In this document: one piece after another, positions 29,601 to 64,000 of the stretch
How positions within the stretch are numbered: position 1 is the first letter of the stretch
Layout: the number at the start of each line of letters is the position of its first letter
NCBI RefSeq assembly: GCF_964213995.1
Contig: NC_135810.1
Coordinates: forward strand, 41,044,001-41,108,000
Source of the DNA: Mustelus asterias
Lineage: Eukaryota
Reading direction: 5' to 3'
Length of the DNA: 64,000 nucleotides
Translations under genes and position numbers: made by a program
The notes under the pieces: generated by a model
Told to the model about the DNA's origin: nothing
Databases searched by the model: none
Seen by the model: the letters and a program-made list of their open reading frames with translations, nothing else

Positions 29601-29690
29601 CCTTACCCCTGCATCCTGCCCCCCATCAATTAGTTCCTTGATCCTAGTCAACTCTTCTAGCTCCCCTCCCCCCAACCTATCTAGTTTAAA
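26670..29690 (-). pseudogene. CR1 ORF2 (APE endonuclease + RT) with one nonsense codon
   Basis: NARSI, VAITETWL, GDFN, SDH; [15 protein letters not shown]; in-frame TAG at 28833-28835 separates the 280-aa and 720-aa ORFs. Confidence 0.95.
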
Positions 29691-41554: not shown

Positions 41555-44352
41555 TATAGAAACATAGAAAAAACTACAGCACAAAACAGGCCCTTCGGCC
41601 CCACAAGTTGTGCCAAACATAACCCTACCTTTTAGGCCTACCTATAACCCTCGATCCTATTAAGTCCCTTGTACTCATCCAGGAGTCTGTTAAAAGACCC
41701 TATTGAGTTTGCCTCCACCACCACTGATGGCAGCTGATTCCACTCGCCCACCACCCTCTGTGTGAAAAACTTCCCACTAATATTTCCCCTGTACCTACTC
41801 CCCAGCACCTTAAACCTGTGTCCTCTCGTAGCACCGGGGGTAGCTTTTGCTTCCACAAAACCTGTTGGACTTTAACCTGGTGTTGTTAAACTTCTTACTG
41901 TCCTCTCGTAGCAGCCATTTCCACCCTGGGAAAAAGCCTCTGAGAGTCCACCCGATCTATGCCTCTCAACATCTTGTATACGTCTATTAGGTCTCCTCTC
42001 ATCCTACGTCTCTCCAAGGAGAAAAGACCGAGCTCCCTCAGCCTATCCTCATAAGGCATGCCACTCAATCTAGGCAACATCCTTGTAAATGTCCTCTGCA
42101 CCCTTTCAATCTTTTCCACATCCTTCCTGTAATGAGGCGACCAGAACTGAGCACAGTACTCCAAGTGGGGTCTGACGAGGGTCTTATATAGCTGCATCAT
42201 TATCCCCGGACTCCTAAACTCAATCCCTCGATTGATAAAGGCCAGCACACCATACGCCTTCTTAACCACCTCCTCCACCTGCGGGGCCGATTTTAGAGTC
42301 CTATGGACCCGGACCCCAAGGTCCTTCTGATCCTCTACAGTACTAAGAGTCTTTACCTTTATATTGTACTCCTTCATCCCATTTGACCTGCCAAAATGGA
42401 CCACTTCGCATTTATCTGGGTTGAAGTCCATCTGCCACTTCTCTGCCCAGCCTTGCATCCTATCTATGTCCCTCTGTAACTTCTGACATCCCTCCAGACT
42501 ATCCACAACCCCACCAACCTTCGTGTCGTCGGCAAACTTACCAACCCATCCCTCCACTTCCTCATCCAGGTCATTTATGAAAATGACAAACAGCAAGGGT
42601 CCCAGAACAGATCCCTGGGGCACACCACTGGTGACCGACCTCCATTTAGAAAAAGACCCATCTATACCCACTCTCCGCCTCCTTTGGGCAAGCCAGTTCT
42701 GGATCCACAGGGCAGCAGCCCCTTGGATCCCATGCCCTCTCACTTTTTCTAGAAGCCTTGCATGGGGGACCTTATTGAACGCCTTGCTAAAATCCATATA
42801 AACCACATCTACCGCTTTCCGTTCGTCAATGTGTTTAGTCACATTTTCGAAGAACTCCACCAGGCTCGTAAGGCACGATCTGCCTTTGACAAAGCCATGC
42901 TGAGTATTCTTGAGCATACTAAACCTCTCTAAATGCTCATAAATCCTGTCCCTCAGGATCTTCTCCATCAGCTTACCAAGCACTGAGGTTAGACTCACCG
43001 GTCGGTAATTTCCTGGGCTATCCCTATTCCCCTTCTTGAAAATAGGAACCACATCCGCAATCCTCCAATCCTTCGGCACCTCCCCCGTCTCCATCGACGA
43101 TGCAAAGATCATCGCCAGAGGCTCTGCAATCTCTTCCCTCGCCTCCCACAGTAACCTGGGGTACATCCCATCCGGACCCGGCGACTTATCTATCTTGATG
43201 CCATTCAAAGAATCCAGCACAACTTCTTTGTTAAATTCCACATACTCAATCTTTTCAGACCACCGCAAGCCCGCAGTACATCCACCCAGGTCCTTCTCCT
43301 CTGTGAAAACCGAGGCAAAATACTCATTAAGCACCTCTGCCATTTCTACTGGTTCCATACAGATTTTCCCGCCTTCACCTTTTATGGGCCCCATTCCTTC
43401 ACGTCTCATCCTTTTACTCTTCACGTATTTATAGAATGCCTTAGGGTTTTCCTTAATTCTACCTGCCAATGCCTTCTCGTGACCCCTTCTGGCTCTCCTA
43501 ATTTCCTTCTTTAGTCCCTTCCGACAAGCCGTATACTCATCAAGATCCCTATCTTTGCCAAGCTCTCTGAACCTTTTGTACGCTTTCCTTTTCTTCTCGA
43601 CTAGGTCCCGCACAGCTTTCGTGCACCACGGTTCCTTTAACTGACAAACTCCTCCCTGTCTGCTCAGAACGTTGTCCTGTAGAACTCTAGACAGACAGTC
43701 CTTGAAAAACTGCCACCTCTCTTCAGTACATTTCCCCAAGAATACCTTCTTCCAATTCATTCCTCTAATTTGCTGCCTTATGTCTTCATATTTCCCCTTA
43801 CTCCATATAAACGCTTTCCTAGCTTGCCTGATCCTCTCTTTTTCCAATGCAAGCATAAAGGAGATAGAGTTATGAGCGCTATCCCCAAGATGCTCCCCCA
43901 CTGAGAGATCTGACACCCGTCCAGGTTCATTGGTCAGTATCAGATCAAGTACAGCCTCTCCTCTTGTAGGCTTGTCCACATGCTGTGTCAGGAAACCTTC
44001 CTGAACACACCTAACGAACTCCTCCCCATCCAATCCCCTTACCCTAGGGATATTCCAATCTATGTTTGGGAAATTAAAGTCTCCCATCACAACAACTCTG
44101 CTATTACTGCATCTCTCCAGGATCTGTTTCCCTATCTGCTCCTCCACCTCCCTGTCACTATTGGGCGGCCTATAGAAAACTCCCAGCAAAGTGATCGACC
44201 CCTTCCCACTCCGAACTTCCACCCACAGAGACTCTGTAGACAATCCCTCCACAGCATACACCTTCTCTACAGCTGTGACACTATCCCTGATCAGCAGTGC
44301 CACTCCACCCCCTCTCTTGCCTCCCTCCCTGTCCTTCCTGAAACATCTGAAT
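41555..44352 (-). mobile_element. CR1 element D (5'-truncated within endonuclease, young) nested in A
   Basis: More than 800 uninterrupted ORF2 codons ([19 protein letters not shown]); tail TTCTATGTTTCTAT. Confidence 0.93.
41834..41898 (+). mobile_element. 65-bp Penelope-type fragment with 15-bp TSD in CR1 D
   Basis: AAACCTGTTGGACTTTAACCTGGTGTTGT; TSD TGTCCTCTCGTAGCA at 41819-41833 and 41899-41913. Confidence 0.8.
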
Positions 44353-45304
44353 CCTGTGAGATTTAACCTGATACAACAACCTACTATGTGGTACCTTGTC
44401 AAAGGCCTTGCTAAAGTCCATGTGGACAGCATCAACTGCACTCATCTACCTTCTTGGTTACCCCTTCAAAAAACGTAATCAAATTTGTGAGACATGATTC
44501 TCCACTCACAAAGCCATGCTGACTATCCCTAATCAGTCCTTGCGTCTCTAAATGCCTGTAGATCCTGTCTCTTAAAATACCTTCTAATAACTTACCCACT
44601 ACAGATGTGAGGTTCACCGGCCTGTAGTTCCCAGGTTTTTCCCTGCAGCCCTTTTTAAGCAAAGGCACAACATTTGCCACCCTCCAATCTTCAGGCACCT
44701 CACCTGTGACTATCGATGATTCAAATATATCTGCTAGGGGACCCGCAATTTCCTCCCTAGCCTCCCACAATGTCCTGGGATACACTTCATCAGGTCCTGG
44801 GGATTTATCTACCTTGATGCGCTTTTAAGACTTCCAGCATCACCTTCTGTTATATGTACACTCCTCAAGATATCACTATTTATTTCCCCAAGTTCCCTAA
44901 CATCCATGCTTTTCTCAACAGTGAATACTGATGAGTAATATTCATTTAGGATCTCACCCATCTCTTATGGATCTGCTCATAGGTGACCTTAAGAGGCCTT
45001 ACTCTCTCCCCAGTTACTCTTTTGCCCTTTAAGTATTTGTAGAAGCTCTTTGGATTCTCCTTTGCCTGATCTGTCAAAACAATCTCGTGTCTCCTTTTTG
45101 CCTTCCTGATTTCTCTCTTCATTCATACAATCTCTATACTCTTCAAGGGATCCACTTGATCCCAGCTGCCTATGCATGTCATGTGCCTCCTTCTTCTTGA
45201 CCAGGGCCTCAATATCCCGAGTTATCCAGGCTTCCCTACTTCTACCAGCCTTGCCCTTCACTCTAAGAGGAAATTGCTTACCCTGAACCCTGGTTAACAC
45301 AGGT

Positions 45305-47165
45305 CCTGGAGCGATGCCTCCCCTTACGGGGTTGTGGCAGCACTGGCACATTACTGGAGAGATGGAACAAAGAAGCCTATTGCAGATGAATCTAGGACCC
45401 TCTCGGATGCTGAGTGGAGATTCCCAGATCGAGAGAGAGGGATTGGCAGTTGTCTTCAGCGTTAAAAAGTTCCATCAATACGTCTACGGTAGACATTTTT
45501 TTCTGTGACTGATCATAAATCTCTGCTAGAACTTTTTAATAAACAAGGCAATCGCCTACATTCCCTCTGCCTAGATATAGAGTTGGGCCTTGTTACTGGC
45601 GGCTTCTAAGTACCTCCGAGAGCACCACCCCAGGACCTGGCTAGCTAACATCCTCGCACTGAGTCATCTGCCATTGCCTCACTTCACTATCGGCTGTGGA
45701 AGATATTGCGATGACCCTCAATCTTTTCCATAACTTGCCGGCATCTGCAAGGCAAATCAAGGACTGGACACAAAAGGTCCCAGTCTTGTCTAAATCAAAA
45801 AACCATAAATCCGTATGGGGGATTCATAGGGTAGCCCTCAGATGAAATGAAACATTACTGGATAAAGAAAGGCCAGCTCAGTGTTGAGAATGGCATCCTG
45901 TGTTGTTGTCCCTCACCCAGGGCAACATCCGATATTTATGGAATTACACCACAGCTGCCCTGGGATTTCAAAGATGAAAATACTAGCAGGAGTATGGTGG
46001 CCTGGCTTTGACGCAGACATTGCTGACTTGGTTAGTCATGCCAAGAGAATCAAAAACTCCCTCCCTCAGCCTCCCTACATCCATGGGAATGGCCTGGTAG
46101 GCCTTGGATGTGAGTGCATGTAGACTTTGCCAGGCTCTTTTTGGGTTCCAGGTTCCTAATTATGGTCAACCTGAATTCCAAATGGTTGGAGATGCCTTGT
46201 AAAAACTCATCACTTCCCATGCTTCCATGAGAAACTAAGACAAAGTTTCTGCATGCACAACAGTCAGTCAGATGATTCAGCGTGACCCAAATACATGTTT
46301 AACTGCAGAAGAATATCTTAAAGCCCTGGTCTCTGATAATGGCACTGTCTTTACTAGCACCGAATTTCAGACTTTCATGCTTTCCAATGGAATCAAAGAA
46401 ATTAGGACAGCACCCTATCACCTGCCATCAAACTGGTTTGCTGACCGAGCAATGCAGACTTTTAAGCTTGGCATGAAGAAGCAACCTGCAGCGCTCATAG
46501 CGATTAAACTGGGTGATTTTTATTCAACTACAGGACTACCCCTCACACAATGACAGGAATCGCCCCAGCGGAACTATTAATGGGACAGAAGCTTTGAACA
46601 AAATTAAGCTTACTGTTCCCATACCTGGGTGAGGAGGTTGGAGTCCCAACAAGAGAACCAGAAGAAGAACTATGATTCTGTAAGGGAGACAGAACATTCA
46701 AAACCAGTAAACAAGTGCACTTGAGGAACTTTGGGGATGGCCTCATTTGGGTCTCCGGGATCATAATAGAGAAAACAGGACCTATGTCTTATGAGGTCCA
46801 AATGCAGGGCAAAATTGTCAGGAAACACCTGGACCATTTCAGAAGTAGGGAGCATGTGCCAGGGCAGGCTTCATCTCAGACATGGGACGACCACTGCCAG
46901 CGTCGAGTCTCGAAAGCAAGTTAAACCCATGCCTGCCCCTCTGGGTGATGAGGACATGGATTCTGAAATGGAAGCGGAAGAGACCGGTGTCCCTACTGAA
47001 ATGAGACCTTAAGAAGAACCAGCAATGGTGTCTTTAAGACCCTCCCTTTGGAAGCCAAGGTCTCCGGTCTTACCTCCCATCGACCCCAGGCTGATGGCCA
47101 AGCAGTGGAGAAAACCCCTCCATAGCCAGAGTACGGGGGAAGAAACTGATTGAGAGGGGGAGGTA
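45305..47165 (+). pseudogene. Gypsy LTR retrotransposon pol remnant (RNase H + integrase)
   Basis: DASPYGV, SQIEREGLAVVFSVKKFHQYVYGRHF, VWWPGFDADI, LVSDNGTVFTSTEF, TAPYHLPSN; many frameshifts; PPT at 47152-47163. Confidence 0.9.
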
Positions 47166-57136: not shown

Positions 57137-58066
57137 ATAGAGTCATAGAGGTTTACAGCATGGAAACAGGCCCTTCGGCCCAACTTGTCCATGCCGCCCT
57201 TTTTAAAAAAAAAACCCTAAACTAATCCCAATTGCCCGCATTTGGTCCATATCCCTCTATACCCATCGTACCCATGTAACTATCTAAATGCTTTTTAAAA
57301 GATGAAATTGTACCTGCCTCTACTACTACCTCTGGCAGCTTGTTCCAGACACTCACCACCCTCTGTGTGAAAAAATTGCCCCTCTGCCCCTTTTGTATCT
57401 CTCCCCTCTCACCTTAAACCTATGCCGTCTACTTTTAGACTCCCCTACCTTTGGGAAAAGATATTGACGATCTACCTTGTCTATGCCCCTCATTATTTTA
57501 TAGACCTCTATAAGGTCACCCCTCAGCCTCCTACGCTCCAGAGAAAAAAGTCCCAGTCTATCCAGCCTCTCCTTATAACTCAATCCATCAAGTCCCGGTA
57601 GCATCCTAGTAAATCTTTTCTGCACTCTTTCTAGTTTAATAATATCCTTTCTATAATAGGGTGACCAGAATTGCACACAGTATTCCAAGTGTGGCCTTAC
57701 CAATGTCTTGTACAACTTTAACAAGACGTCCCAACTCCTGTATTCAATGTTCTGACCAATGAAACCAAGCTTGCCGAATGCCTTCTTCACCACTCTGTCC
57801 ACCTGTGACTCCACTTTCAAGGAGCTATGAACATGTACCCCTAGATCTCTTTGTTCTGTAACTCTCCCCAACGCCCTACCATTAACTGAGTAAGTCCTGC
57901 CCTGGTTCAATCTATCAAAATGCATTACCTCGTATTTGTCTAAATTAAACACCATCTGCCATTCGTCAGCCCACTGGCTCAATTGATCAAGATCCCGTTG
58001 CAATTGGCGATAACTTTCTTCACTGTCCACTATGCCACCAATCTTGGTGTCATCTGCAAACTTACT
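57137..58066 (-). mobile_element. CR1 3' fragment starting at the FADD motif
   Basis: KFADDTKIGG, then a 225-aa ORF; tail CTCTATGACTCTAT. Confidence 0.92.
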
Positions 58067-59952
58067 GCTTGTTATTATTTGTAGATTACCAGATTACTGC
58101 TAAAAAGGATTTGCTTTCACCATTGTTTCAATGTGAATTTCAAAGTAACTGCGTGCATCTTACAAAATATAAATTTTTTCAGAAAGGTATTTTGTAAATC
58201 ATCTGTTTCATGTGAAATAAACCAGGGACAGAGGCAAGTAAAAAAAAATTCAGAGGTATCTATCTTTTTATTTTGCTGTGATTCTTGAAAGTTAGCTGAT
58301 AGTTTACAAATCTGGTTTAAGAACTCCGCCAGACAGAATGATTGATAGAGATCAGAAAATCCACAGAATTGGTCTTCAGCTTGTGCTGGGTGTGCTGATC
58401 TCAATCAGGGCGATGTTTAAAACCAGTGCAATGGGTCAGAGCATCTTGGTTTGGCAGGTGAAAATGATCCAGATTCTCATTCCTGACCTTCATCCAAATG
58501 ACCACAATGCGCACCATGGATGAGAATGTGTGTGAACTTCAGAAATGGACAGATTGGACTTGATTGTGATCATCACTGCAGTAGAATAGCATACCAACAC
58601 GCACTATCTAGGCCCAAACCCATTAAAATAAGTAAAGTAAATTGCCACTTAGGCTAAGTACCAGAGACTGTCTGTTGCCATAGCAATCATGCTCTCGAAA
58701 CTACTCAATATTTTCAGGAGAGGAGATCTGTAGGACACAGAACTAGTAAGAAAAGAAATATAATCTTGTCCAGCAAAAGCTAGGTAAGCTAATGGAAGGA
58801 AGCTGTCTCTTTTTAAATGGTGAAAATGGAGCTTTCAGTCTCACACAATGCATTAAAGTTCACTGCTATTCAGAAATTCCTATTGTTGTCCCCAGAGCAC
58901 CAATACTGTACATGCCCTGGATGACTGGAACTGTCGTATCAAATATGACCCACCTGTACCGAACTTTCTTCTCAAAAGGGGGCAGCTTAAACCTTAGCAA
59001 TGCTCAGGCATGAAAACCCAGAACCAGCCTTTTCCCAGACAGAGAAAACACACCAAATTCCAGGGCTTGCATTATAATAACAGTTGTGTCTCTGCTGTGG
59101 GCAAAGGTCGTCACATATTAATTTGTCAAGTTCTACTGCTTCATAATTTGAGCAAGATTGGTAGGCTTGCATTTTACAAAGGCAGCTTGTAGTAACTGCC
59201 AAACCTATGAAGCTCGGGCCAGAAAATAGTCATTACAATGCGTTTTAAATTCCCAAGTACAGTACTTCAAAACATAAAATGGCATTGTCACCTGTGTAAT
59301 ATGATAATACGGCTTAATTCTATATTGCTTTGCATAACTGGAGAATGATGTGTCTGTTTTCCATTTTATCTCCAGTAGATGAATCTCTGCAATTATCAAA
59401 CAGCACAAATAAAGTGGCCTAGACGTGTAGCGCTCTGCAAAAATAATTTTATGCCACATTGTCAAATGCTTGATCTGCCTTCCACAAGAACAACCGCAGT
59501 TCTGTCACTGCTGCAGTTATGCCCTGTGGCTCTGCTGTTTTAATTGCTTTTAATTAAAGCCTGGAATGGGATGCAGCTATTAATCAGTATGTGAAACTGC
59601 TCATGGGGAAGATAGAACAAATACCTCCATTAGACAGATAGCAGTGACATCACTGGTGCCATATTTGCATTGCTGACAAGAGAACCACTCAAGTGAGGTA
59701 ATTAGATCACAGTCTTGAGGCCACCAAGGTACTGTGAACAACTGAGACATTTTACGAACAAACTTTACAACTGCATAATCAACCCTGCAGTGAGGAAGAG
59801 GGTAGAGCCGGCACTAATATTAACTTGCAGGAATGAAGCAGGGTTTATCCACCAATGTTTGTTATCTAACAAACTCTACAGAGGTATAATAAAGATTTAG
59901 CCACCACTTTTCATATCACTTAATCAGTCTTGCAGTTAATGTTCAAACAAAT

Positions 59953-60900: not shown

Positions 60901-60935
60901 AAATGTTGTGGATCGAGAGCTAAGATTGAGGAAGC

Positions 60936-61244
60936 TTGAGGGGGATCCTAAGAGAGCAATTCAGGGAGTTGGGAAATAGGTTAAAAAGTAGGGTCACTAG
61001 GGTGGCCATCTCTGGGCTGCTCCCAATGCTTCGTGCCAGTGAGGCTAAGAATAGGGAGTTGGTACAAATGAATGCCTGGCTAAAGGACTGGTCCAGGAGG
61101 GAGGGCTTCATTTTCATAGATCAATGGGAAGTTTTCAGGAGAGGATGGCACCTGTACAAGAGGGAGGGGTCACAACTAAGTTGGAAGGGCACAAATATCC
61201 TGGCTGGGAGCTTTGCTAGTGCAGTTCGGGGGGGTTTAAACTAG
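60936..61244 (+). pseudogene. CR1 ORF1 C-terminal fragment (SGNH esterase)
   Basis: FRELGNRLK..VAISGLLP..MNAWLKDW..GTNILAG..GGLN*, aligns with ORF1 at 29681-30610. Confidence 0.88.
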
Positions 61245-64000
61245 TATGGCAGGGGGGTGGGGATCAAAATATTAGGTCTATAAGTGTGGAGGCTGGGGAA
61301 GAGCTTGGGGCTGGGACAAGGCTGGCAAAGAAGAAGAGCACTCTGGGGGAGGACGACCTCACTGGGCCTGGAGGTCTGGAGTGCTTATACTTCAATGCAA
61401 GGAGCATAGCAGGTAAGACAGACGAACTTGGGGCCTTAATGCGCACGAGGAATTTGGATGTGGTTGCGGTGACAGAGACTTGGTTGAAAGAGGGACAGGA
61501 ATGGCAGCTGAATATTCCAGGATACAAGTGTTTTAGGCGAGACAGAGGAGGGGCCAAAAGAGGTGGGGGAGTAGCGGTATTAGTTGGAGAGCATATTACA
61601 GCGGTGCAGAGGGAGGACAATTCAGAGGGGTCGTGTATCGAGTCACTCTGGGTGGAGCTTAGAAACAGGAAAGGCGCAGTCACTATGTTGGGGGTGTACT
61701 ACAGGCCCCCCAATAGCCCAAGGGAAGTGGAAGAATGGATATGTCAGGAGATACTGGATAGGTGCAGGAAAAATAGGGTTGTTGTAGTGGGAGACTTCAA
61801 TTTCCCTGGGAAAGACTGGAAATCGCTGAGGGCAGCGACTTTGGATGGGGAGGAATTTGTAAAATGTGTACAGGAGGGTTCGTTGGAACAATATGTAGAC
61901 AGCCCGACTAGAGAGGGGGCTATACTGGACCTCGTACTGGGGAATGAGCTCGGTCAGGTCTTCAAAGTTTCGGTAGGGGAACATGTGGCAAATAGTGACC
62001 ACAATTCTGGTAGCTTTAGGATAGTGATGGAAAAGGATGAGTGGTGTCCCAAGGGTAAGGTGTTGGATTGGGGGAAGGCTAACTTTAGTGGGATCAGGCA
62101 GAAATTGGCAGCTCTTGATTGGGAGAGGCTGTTTGAGGGTAAATCCACATCTGGTATGTGGCAGTCTTTTAAGGAACAGTTGTTAGGGCTACAGGACAAG
62201 CATGTGCCTGTAAAAAAGAAGGATAGGAAGGGTAGGATTAGAGAACCGTGGATAACCAGGGAAATTGAGGGACTGGTCAAAAAGAAAAGAGAGGCGTATG
62301 TTAGGTCCAGGCAGCTAAAAACGGAGGGAGCTCTGGAGGAGTACAAAGAAAGTAGGAAAGTACTCAAACGGGGAATTAGAAGAGCAAAAAGGGGTCACGA
62401 AATGTTCTTGGCAGACAGGATTAAGGAGAATCCCAAGGCATTTTATTCATACGTTAGGAACAAAAGGGTTGTCAGGGAAAAAATCGGACCTCTCAGGGAC
62501 AAAAGTGGGGACTTATGTTTGGAGCCCAAAGAAGTAGGGGAGATCCTAAATGAATACTTTGCGTCGGTATTCACAAAGGAGAGGGATGTGTTGACTGGGA
62601 GTATCTCAGAGGGGAGTGTTGAACCGTTGGAGAAAATCTCCATTACAAAGGAGGAAGTGTTAGGTTTGTTAGAGAATATAAAGACGGACAAATCCCCAGG
62701 GCCTGATGGAATCTATCCAAGGCTGCTCAGGGAGACGAGAGATGAAATCGTTGGGCCTCTGACGCAAATCTTTGTCTCGTCACTGGACGCAGGTGAGGTC
62801 CCAGAGGATTGGAGGATAGCTAATGTGGTCCCGTTATTTAAGAAGGGTAGGAAGGATAACCTGGGTAATTATAGGCCGGTGAGCTTGATGTCCGTGGTGG
62901 GGAAGTTGTTGGAGAAGATTCTTAGAGATAGGATGTATGCGCATTTAGAAAGGAATAAACTCATTAACGATAGTCAGCATGGTTTTGTGAGAGGGAGGTC
63001 ATGCCTCACTAACCTGGTGGTGTTTTTTGAAGAAGTGACCAGAATGGTTGACGAAGGAAGGGCCGTGGATGTTGTCTATATGGACTTTAGTAAAGCGTTT
63101 GACAAAGTCCCTCGTGGTAGGCTAGTGAAAAAGGTTGGATGTCATGGGATAAAGGGGGAGGTGGCTAGATGGGTGGAGAACTGGCTTGGTCATAGAAGAC
63201 AGAGGGTGGTAGTGGAAGGGTCTTTTTCCGGCTGGAGGCCTGTGACTAGTGGTGTACCACAGGGCTCTGTATTGGGACCTCTGCTGTTTGTGATTTATAT
63301 AAATGATCTGGAAGAAGGAGTAACTGGGGTGATCAGTAAGTTTGCGGACGACACAAAACTGGCAGGACTTGCAGATAGTGAGGAACATTGTCAGAGACTA
63401 CAGAAGGATATTTAGATAGGCTGGAAATTTGGGCAAGGAAATGGCAGATGGAGTTCAATCCTGATAAATGCGAAGTGATGCATTTTGGTGGGAATAATGT
63501 AGGGAGGAGCTACACGATAAATGGAAGAACCATAAAGGGTGTAGAGACGCAGAGGGACCTGGGTGTGCAAGTCCACAGATCTTTGAAGGTGACGTCACAG
63601 GTGGAGAAGGTGGTGAAGAAGGCATATGGCATGCTTGCCTTTATAGGACGGGGCATAGAGTATAAAAGTTGGGGTCTGATGTTGCAGATGTATAGAACGT
63701 TGGTTCGGCCGCATTTGGAATACTGCGTCCAGTTCTGGTCGCCACACTACCAGAAGGACGTGGAGGCTTTGGAGAGAGTACAGAGGAGGTTTACCAGGAT
63801 GTTGCCTGGTATGGAGGGGCTTGGTTATGAGGAGAGATTGGGGAAACTGGGGTTGTTCTCCTTGGAAAGACGGAGGATGAGGGGAGACTTAATAGAGGTG
63901 TATAAAATTATGAAAGGCATAGATAGGGTGAACGGTGGGAAGATTTTCCCCGGGTCGGTGGTGACGTTCACGAGGGGTCATAGGTTCAAGGTGAAGGGGG
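61235..64000 (+). pseudogene. CR1 ORF2 (APE + RT) with one frameshift near 63411
   Basis: Open from TTT at 61235 to 63415; AAGGATATTTAGATAGG appears to be KDIDR with a 2-nt insertion; RT continues in the new frame to the window end. Confidence 0.92.

Follow-up and report, generated by a model that had tools for sequence, protein, structure and literature searches.

Vertebrate CR1 retrotransposons may express ORF2 by −1 frameshifting at a conserved U_UUA_AAC heptamer beside the ORF1 stop

A young CR1 element with an esterase-type ORF1

The window, that is, the whole 64-kb stretch of Mustelus asterias DNA that was analysed, contains three LINE fragments in which APE and RT domains were identified. 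The fragment of interest (60928..64000, + strand, starting at about 60928–60939) is a 5′-truncated copy of a young family and extends beyond the window end. Its domain layout and its short 3′ UTR, which closes with short repeats, are typical of the CR1 clade and identify it as a probable CR1 LINE. Over 3,072 bases the element shared 98.6% identity with another copy, and 40 scored copies at 99–100% among 1,461 candidates in the 3.68-Gb genome indicated the youth of the family. The upstream part is an ORF1 remnant (60930..61244, +) comprising the C-terminal 104 codons of an SGNH-esterase-type protein with the end GGLN-stop, which was aligned with sister lineages. Its homologues bear the SGNH esterase domain PF13472, and the nearest named ORF1 proteins are those of sharks and rays. 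The N-terminal Cys motif of ORF1 is visible in longer family copies, the window copy retaining the C-terminal part only; one longer copy showed 344 open ORF1 codons with Met as the sixth. No match to the fish-type ORF1 was found in metagenome or viral contigs, and none to the amniote-type APE pattern in the Mustelus asterias genome.

The ORF2 frame (61220..63415, +), which comprises the linker, APE and RT, lies at −1 relative to ORF1 and resumes in 63382–63999. The initial annotation had described a −1 frame running without a stop into ORF2, and indeed 731 codons proved to be open, with domain matches to PF03372 and PF14529 (endonuclease) followed by PF00078 (RT). The longer copy with 344 open ORF1 codons (L161) contained 976 open codons counted from the heptamer described below. 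The window copy itself is dead, being 5′-truncated and having lost its frame near 63410, so that any mechanism applies to the source elements of the family.

A slippery heptamer in phase at the ORF1 stop

The annotated TTTAAAC was found exactly where it had been placed: the slippery heptamer U_UUA_AAC (61235..61241, +) is read by ORF1 as GGT TTA AAC, i.e. in the phase X_XXY_YYZ, and is directly followed by the ORF1 stop TAG (61242..61244, +), for which other lineages have TAA or TGA. The two frames overlap at 61220–61244, and past the heptamer the −1 frame meets no stop before it reaches APE–RT. The same heptamer–stop junction is present in the first CR1 of the window (29681..29690, −), which belongs to another lineage. 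A 10-mer of this kind is not rare when one mismatch is allowed (5 seen in the 64-kb window versus 5.5 expected); both exact matches in the window, however, are ORF1 ends. Genome-wide, TTTAAACTAG-N8-GGGGG gave 10,471 matches and the reversed control 8, confirming that the junction is real and well beyond chance. As the loci of this search had been chosen by the heptamer, they were left out of the conservation counts.

Several neighbouring features were considered and discarded. A second in-phase heptamer, G_GGU_UUA (61232..61238, +), overlaps U_UUA_AAC one codon upstream; it occurred in one of seven long loci and was dismissed as a general signal because it is confined to the + strand family of the window. 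A +1-frame ATG one base past the stop opens a frame of nine codons (61246..61275, +) and is GTG or TTG in sister subfamilies. Stop–start coupling at this TAG-T-ATG was rejected on account of the wrong frame, the short length and the lack of conservation. Transcriptional slippage on the G7 run 5′ of the heptamer was rejected as well, since the run is absent in other lineages.

Nucleotide-level conservation across fish lineages

Within the young family, the exact heptamer occurred in 1,680 of 1,713 copies when any coding of Gly-Leu-Asn-stop was allowed, a count that would mostly reflect youth, and all 30 closest copies shared the window junction, although as best hits they are biased to likeness. 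To choose copies irrespective of the heptamer, we anchored the search on a coding motif of ORF1 that lies 18 bases 5′ of it and contains no part of it; this yielded 14,132 genome matches. Seventy anchored copies were evaluated, namely the first 30 loci of the listing and 40 from its other 70, chosen so that the anchor sequences varied. TTTAAAC stood directly before the stop in 66 of these, while the remaining four deviated by one substituted base or by an indel of one base. The stop after the heptamer varied (TAG 34, TAA 21, TGA 11; n = 66), and the codon preceding TTA-AAC was GGT, GAT, AGT, ACT, AAT or TGT, thus ending in T throughout while encoding six amino acids. A second sample of 30 loci, anchored on an APE motif and overlapping with the first, showed the heptamer–stop within 400 bases upstream in 24 cases and a single substitution in one; in the five loci without it, the upstream sequence was apparently truncated or different.

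The 46 intact copies among the 70 were collapsed at 88% identity to 10 lineages. The stop-free linkers of these lineages follow from the filter that kept 46 of 70 copies and are not evidence. The terminal Leu codon was TTA in all 10 lineages, compared with 1/41 other Leu codons, and the terminal Asn codon was AAC in 10/10, compared with 9/25 elsewhere. The third base of the preceding codon was T in every lineage with six amino acids represented: its first and second positions had changed repeatedly, the third had not. The third base was also invariant in four further ORF1 columns, of which two belong to the search anchor, and the lineages share ancestry, so that lineage counts are not independent trials. 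Judging from the codons TTA, AAC and NNT, which stayed fixed beside a varying stop although synonymous choice was free, the constraint at the ORF1 end acts on bases and not on residues.

The reading frame downstream is tied to the heptamer as well. The distance from the heptamer to the APE Asn was divisible by three in 52 of 65 copies (5 of the 70 lacked the Asn motif), and the modal lengths of 129, 138, 141, 144, 159, 162, 180, 189 and 228 are all multiples of three. The other 13 copies had distances off a mode or were rearranged, several through indels in the G run.

A linear G-rich tag instead of a downstream structure

Canonical stimulators of −1 frameshifting are stem-loops or pseudoknots located 5–9 nt downstream. 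The initial annotation had suggested that the sequence 3′ of the heptamer be folded in search of such an element, but no conserved Watson–Crick structure emerged; a linear G tag is kept instead. The consensus fold over 13 junctions amounted to −0.21 kcal/mol, i.e. no conserved hairpin, and single-sequence folds (n = 8) gave z-scores from −1.57 to +0.83. Likewise, no conserved first stem of a pseudoknot was seen; the folding tools used do not predict pseudoknots. The CR1 junction would work in the manner of a viral −1 frameshift site but, as no canonical structured stimulator was found, it is placed outside the canonical class.

The tag GGGGRRNGGG (61252..61261, +), a candidate stimulator, has its first G at the 11th base past the heptamer. 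It was present in all 10 fish lineages with seven positions always G, three of which are third codon positions; GGG makes up less than half of the ORF2 Gly codons, yet it is fixed twice in the tag. In each of nine long loci the tag fell within the top 0.03–2.4% of G4Hunter windows (G4Hunter 1.3–2.0), and a two-tier G4 pattern was found in 6/7 fish and 7/10 bird-type loci. An exact complement of the tag was absent in all seven long loci, and a long-range partner was rejected, the best duplexes lying at different places in each element.

Bird-type relatives and the routes into ORF2

An alignment of the bird-type ORF1 matched 51 metagenome loci, 18 of which reached the junction, with hosts deduced from protein likeness; prokaryote and viral contigs gave no match. 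Named members of this ORF1 type come from birds, a turtle and a snake. TTTAAAC was found in 13 of the 18 junctions and differed by one or two bases in the other five, while the G tract stood in the same register as in the fish lineages at nearly all 18. At the protein level, 33 of 41 ORF1 homologues ended in Leu-Asn, as did 82 of the 120 bird-type matches listed, most others being partial or mis-joined models.

In two bird and two ray gene models, FKL is read in the −1 frame through to NARS. Public models of this kind (P0126, P0141, P0022, P0026) enter the −1 frame just before FKL or via ORF1 and could point to splicing or to a shorter transcript, by which the linker would be brought into frame with ORF1 or with an AUG further upstream. 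They are, however, predictions from decayed copies. GT..AG ends were found at none of nine joints in four sequencing runs, a weak result because these were contigs only and the RNA status of three runs was guessed, and the −1 frame was closed 3–15 bases upstream of the heptamer in six of seven long loci. Direct reading showed a purine-rich region with no polypyrimidine tract, and splicing provides no reason for the fixed TTA-AAC codons. We thus regard this route as the least probable of those considered.

A different route is suggested by the bases following the stop. In 5 of the 18 bird-type junctions an ATG in the ORF2 frame stands two bases past it (TAG-NN-ATG), and TTG or GTG is also common there, as would suit an L1-like, largely AUG-independent termination–reinitiation in which the ribosome restarts shortly past the ORF1 stop, a few bases on, in the −1 frame. 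The heptamer and the G tag would then serve to retain or place the ribosome after termination, and ORF2p would be a separate protein. The nearly fixed distance from stop to tag agrees with this mechanism. Furthermore, according to the relevant sections of PMC1965478 and PMC5009743, the L1 ORF2 ATG can be replaced by other sense codons, and SART1 offers a precedent for stop–start coupling with a downstream element (described in part of PMC5972666). In fish, however, the codon in question is TGG, AGG, TGT, CAG, CGG or TAT and in none of 70 copies ATG, so that an AUG of the SART1 or calicivirus type beside the ORF1 stop is missing from this sample. TTG in birds may be a CpG-decayed TCG, a codon that occurs among the bird-type junctions. 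The motif UGGGA is the upstream reinitiation signal of calicivirus type; of 14 loci, only 3 had it in the 100 bases upstream and, not being conserved, it was rejected in this role. Reinitiation leaves unexplained why exactly X_XXY_YYZ is retained in phase beside a varying stop. We consider it the main rival of frameshifting, yet rather improbable as the general mechanism, although some bird subfamilies may use frameshifting and reinitiation both.

Mammalian L1 and silkworm SART1 are, like CR1, bicistronic LINEs with low ORF2 output, and L1 tolerates the loss of the AUG. In L1, however, the ORFs are separated by a spacer of 63 nt and an AUG precedes the endonuclease, and SART1 uses UAAUG, whereas the + strand CR1 family has −1 overlapping frames and no AUG before the endonuclease.

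The first AUG lies inside the endonuclease

Between heptamer and endonuclease, the + strand element has an AUG-free linker of about 47 codons (61235..61375, +). It is followed by the first APE strand, LECLYFN (61376..61399, +; residues 48–55), with an invariant Asn codon at 61394–61396. The first in-frame ATG, that of GALM, had been annotated near 61439, beyond CLYFNARSI; it lies at 61439..61441 (+), 15 codons past the Asn of NARS (61394), and encodes Met69 counted from the heptamer. A structure model of the first 282 residues from the heptamer was built from seven sequences (mean pLDDT 58.5). Residues 1–45 of the linker were of low confidence (pLDDT < 50) and are probably disordered; a strand at 48–55 leads to Asn54, which was invariant in 7/7 sequences, and APE helix 1 (62–72) holds Met69. 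The best structural matches of the modelled APE were the L1 and TRAS1 endonucleases. The HMMER match to the L1 endonuclease begins at the first strand, with Met69 near L1 residue 31, and places Asn54 opposite L1 N16, not N14; by the usual APE alignments, Asn54 is presumably the counterpart of N14. With either register, the first ATG would be near L1 residue 31 and the first strand would be lost. The annotated truncation of the endonuclease by AUG initiation is thereby made specific: a start at 61439 would delete the predicted β1 together with its invariant Asn, and helix 1 would lose one half. The N14A exchange in L1 eliminated endonuclease activity and lowered retrotransposition to 1%, and N17A in Zorro3 reduced it to below 5%, as reported in the pertinent part of PMC1965478; we found no mention of N14 in PMC4837594.

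The earlier proposal that ORF2 needs frameshifting or non-AUG reinitiation gained support from the family, since an ATG upstream of NARS was absent from all 30 closest copies (best hits, biased to likeness). A possible exception was GTG at 61286, which might have been a mutated ATG. Among 1,256 family copies genome-wide only three had ATG there, and the idea was rejected. In the first 100 family copies listed, the codon was mostly GTA, which is synonymous (Val) in the −1 frame and no start codon.

Across the fish lineages, a linker ATG was lacking in six of ten and present in four, including that of the first CR1 of the window, where it stands at linker codon 36; the + strand CR1 is thus the stronger case. 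These ATGs, as well as the in-frame ATT, GTG and CTG codons of the + strand linker, could be taken to mean that there is no recoding signal at all, Leu-Asn at the ORF1 end and Gly-x-Gly in the linker being a protein constraint or an accident of inheritance and ORF2 being translated from scattered near-cognate codons or linker AUGs, different ones in different lineages. Such an explanation appears very unlikely to us: it would not account for the fixed third positions, which include GGG twice, the frame from the heptamer is kept even in lineages with a linker ATG, the window GTG is not the usual family codon, and the same bases recur in bird-type elements.

The two CR1 elements of the window had been considered to lack evident similarity in their linkers. 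This holds for the middle, but not for the ends, as both linkers begin with FKL..GGG and finish with G-[IL]-x-x-L-x-x-NARS. Linker differences by codon position (39/53/59) showed a weak third-position excess. The initial annotation had also counted the two elements as independent support for each other; their endonuclease regions are indeed only about 40% identical (family representative), but the elements share an ancestor, so that the support is independent only in part.

Proposed mechanism and comparison with known systems

We propose, with a probability of about 0.78, that −1 programmed frameshifting on U_UUA_AAC gives rise to an ORF1–ORF2 fusion. What the sequences show is the phase, the frame, the lack of an AUG and the conservation of bases, and from these we deduce that slippage takes place, that a fusion is made and that the tag has a part in it. 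Translation of the CR1 RNA would start at the ORF1 AUG, and the majority of ribosomes would end at the ORF1 stop, releasing the esterase-type ORF1 protein. A minority would slip back one base on U_UUA_AAC, with UUA/AAC re-pairing on UUU/AAA, and miss the stop. The slipped ribosomes would then traverse the disordered linker and synthesize a Gag-Pol-like ORF1–APE–RT fusion of about 1,310 residues (339 + 974). The invariance of the heptamer at the nucleotide level favours frameshifting over non-AUG reinitiation without deciding the matter.

The stimulator would be something other than a Watson–Crick structure. By analogy, the most likely candidate, tentatively, would be the G tag, which would bind a protein and in this way form a roadblock at the channel through which the mRNA enters; a two-tier G-quadruplex and slow termination at the adjoining stop are less probable alternatives, to which we give equal and rather low weight. 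The analogy derives from PRRSV nsp2, where, according to the section of PMC5009743 devoted to it, nsp1-β and PCBP trans-activate frameshifting on CCCANCUCC. This linear motif follows the shift site at a distance of 11 nt, and the protein complex bound to it mimics a structure. Both systems would thus rely on a short linear motif in place of a structure, the CR1 tag beginning at the 11th base. The PRRSV motif is C-rich, however, the CR1 tag G-rich, and the shift sites differ, so that the parallel concerns spacing alone and protein binding to the CR1 tag is put forward on that basis.

The heptamer itself has close counterparts among viruses. As described in the parts of PMC5009743 on these sites, U_UUA_AAC is counted among the shiftiest heptamers, and the coronavirus IBV has the same heptamer in the same phase at 1a/1b. 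Coronavirus and arterivirus 1a/1b as well as retroviral gag-pol (Rous sarcoma virus) resemble CR1 in combining an abundant upstream protein, a rare polymerase and a zero-frame stop nearby. Unlike these sites, the CR1 junction showed no detectable pseudoknot or stem-loop, its host is a non-LTR retrotransposon, and its slippage is deduced from sequence. LINE −1 frameshifting has a precedent in the APE-type elements TRE5-A and TRE3-A of Dictyostelium, which need it for ORF2 according to a passage in a review (PMC5911963). Clade and host differ from CR1, and the passage gives no heptamer or stimulator. The order of an esterase ORF1 and an APE–RT ORF2 was also found in the vertebrate CR1 with SGNH-esterase ORF1 of Schneider et al. 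2013 (PMC3905857); the word frameshift is absent from the main text of that paper, whose supplements might show junctions.

Significance

None of the papers listed by our literature searches proposed that ribosomes shift frame at the CR1 junction, although the overlap or the heptamer may already be mentioned in Repbase or in the work on chicken and turtle CR1 from the 1990s. How LINE ORF2 is translated has been called an open and important question, with reinitiation, IRES and 2A given as routes (PMC3894237). If true, a CR1 −1 frameshift would add a virus-like route, with more than 10,000 junction matches in this genome alone. The fusion would tether the polymerase to an esterase-type ORF1 particle, and CR1 ORF2 starts would be mis-annotated. 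Natural stimulation by a G-quadruplex was anticipated yet not known in 2016 (review PMC5009743, in its passage on this subject), and a stimulator that is G-rich and needs no structure would already be a novelty. In its broadest form, to which we assign slightly less than even odds, the interpretation is that vertebrate CR1 elements produce a Gag-Pol-like esterase–APE–RT fusion by means of a structure-free cassette of about 30 bases (U_UUA_AAC, stop and G-rich tag at the 11th base), which would have a G-tract-binding protein or a natural G-quadruplex as its switch and may have been kept since the split between cartilaginous fish and birds.

In the CR1 lineage comprising loci L081, L110, L142, L150 and L158 (e.g., contig G000:C1, 2676674–2677022), two NARS-type motifs, the first conserved motif of the ORF2 endonuclease (APE), lie in frame at a spacing of 39 codons, and the reading frame from the heptamer TTTAAAC is preserved. 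The arrangement resembles the product of recombination between two CR1 lineages, with the join lying within the linker between heptamer and APE. At another CR1 locus, L162 (G000:C1:566100–571900), the ORF2 frame of 1,123 codons exceeds that of the sister lineages by about 150 codons. The additional codons, together with a repeated stretch whose copies lie about 460 bases apart, suggest an internal in-frame duplication.

Open frames and domains were also analyzed in a third, rearranged CR1 fragment of the window (41895–45474, − strand), from which the ORF1 junction is absent. Its 848-codon APE-RT frame begins within the endonuclease and is preceded by a decayed piece of mid-ORF2. For an open frame of 246 codons (window 57353–58093, − strand), a Pfam search gave no match.

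Among the ORF1 homologues, the bird-type CR1 protein P0115 is deposited under Klebsiella pneumoniae, probably owing to contamination of the assembly by host DNA. The ray gene models P0022 and P0026 are esterase-linker-APE fusions, in which, at the G-run preceding the heptamer, ORF1 continues directly in the –1 frame; they represent either natural indel copies or model corrections. The more distant homologues P0037 and P0038, examined as protein sequences, terminate in Gly-Asn in place of Leu-Asn, which could be encoded by another shifty heptamer, G_GGA_AAC.
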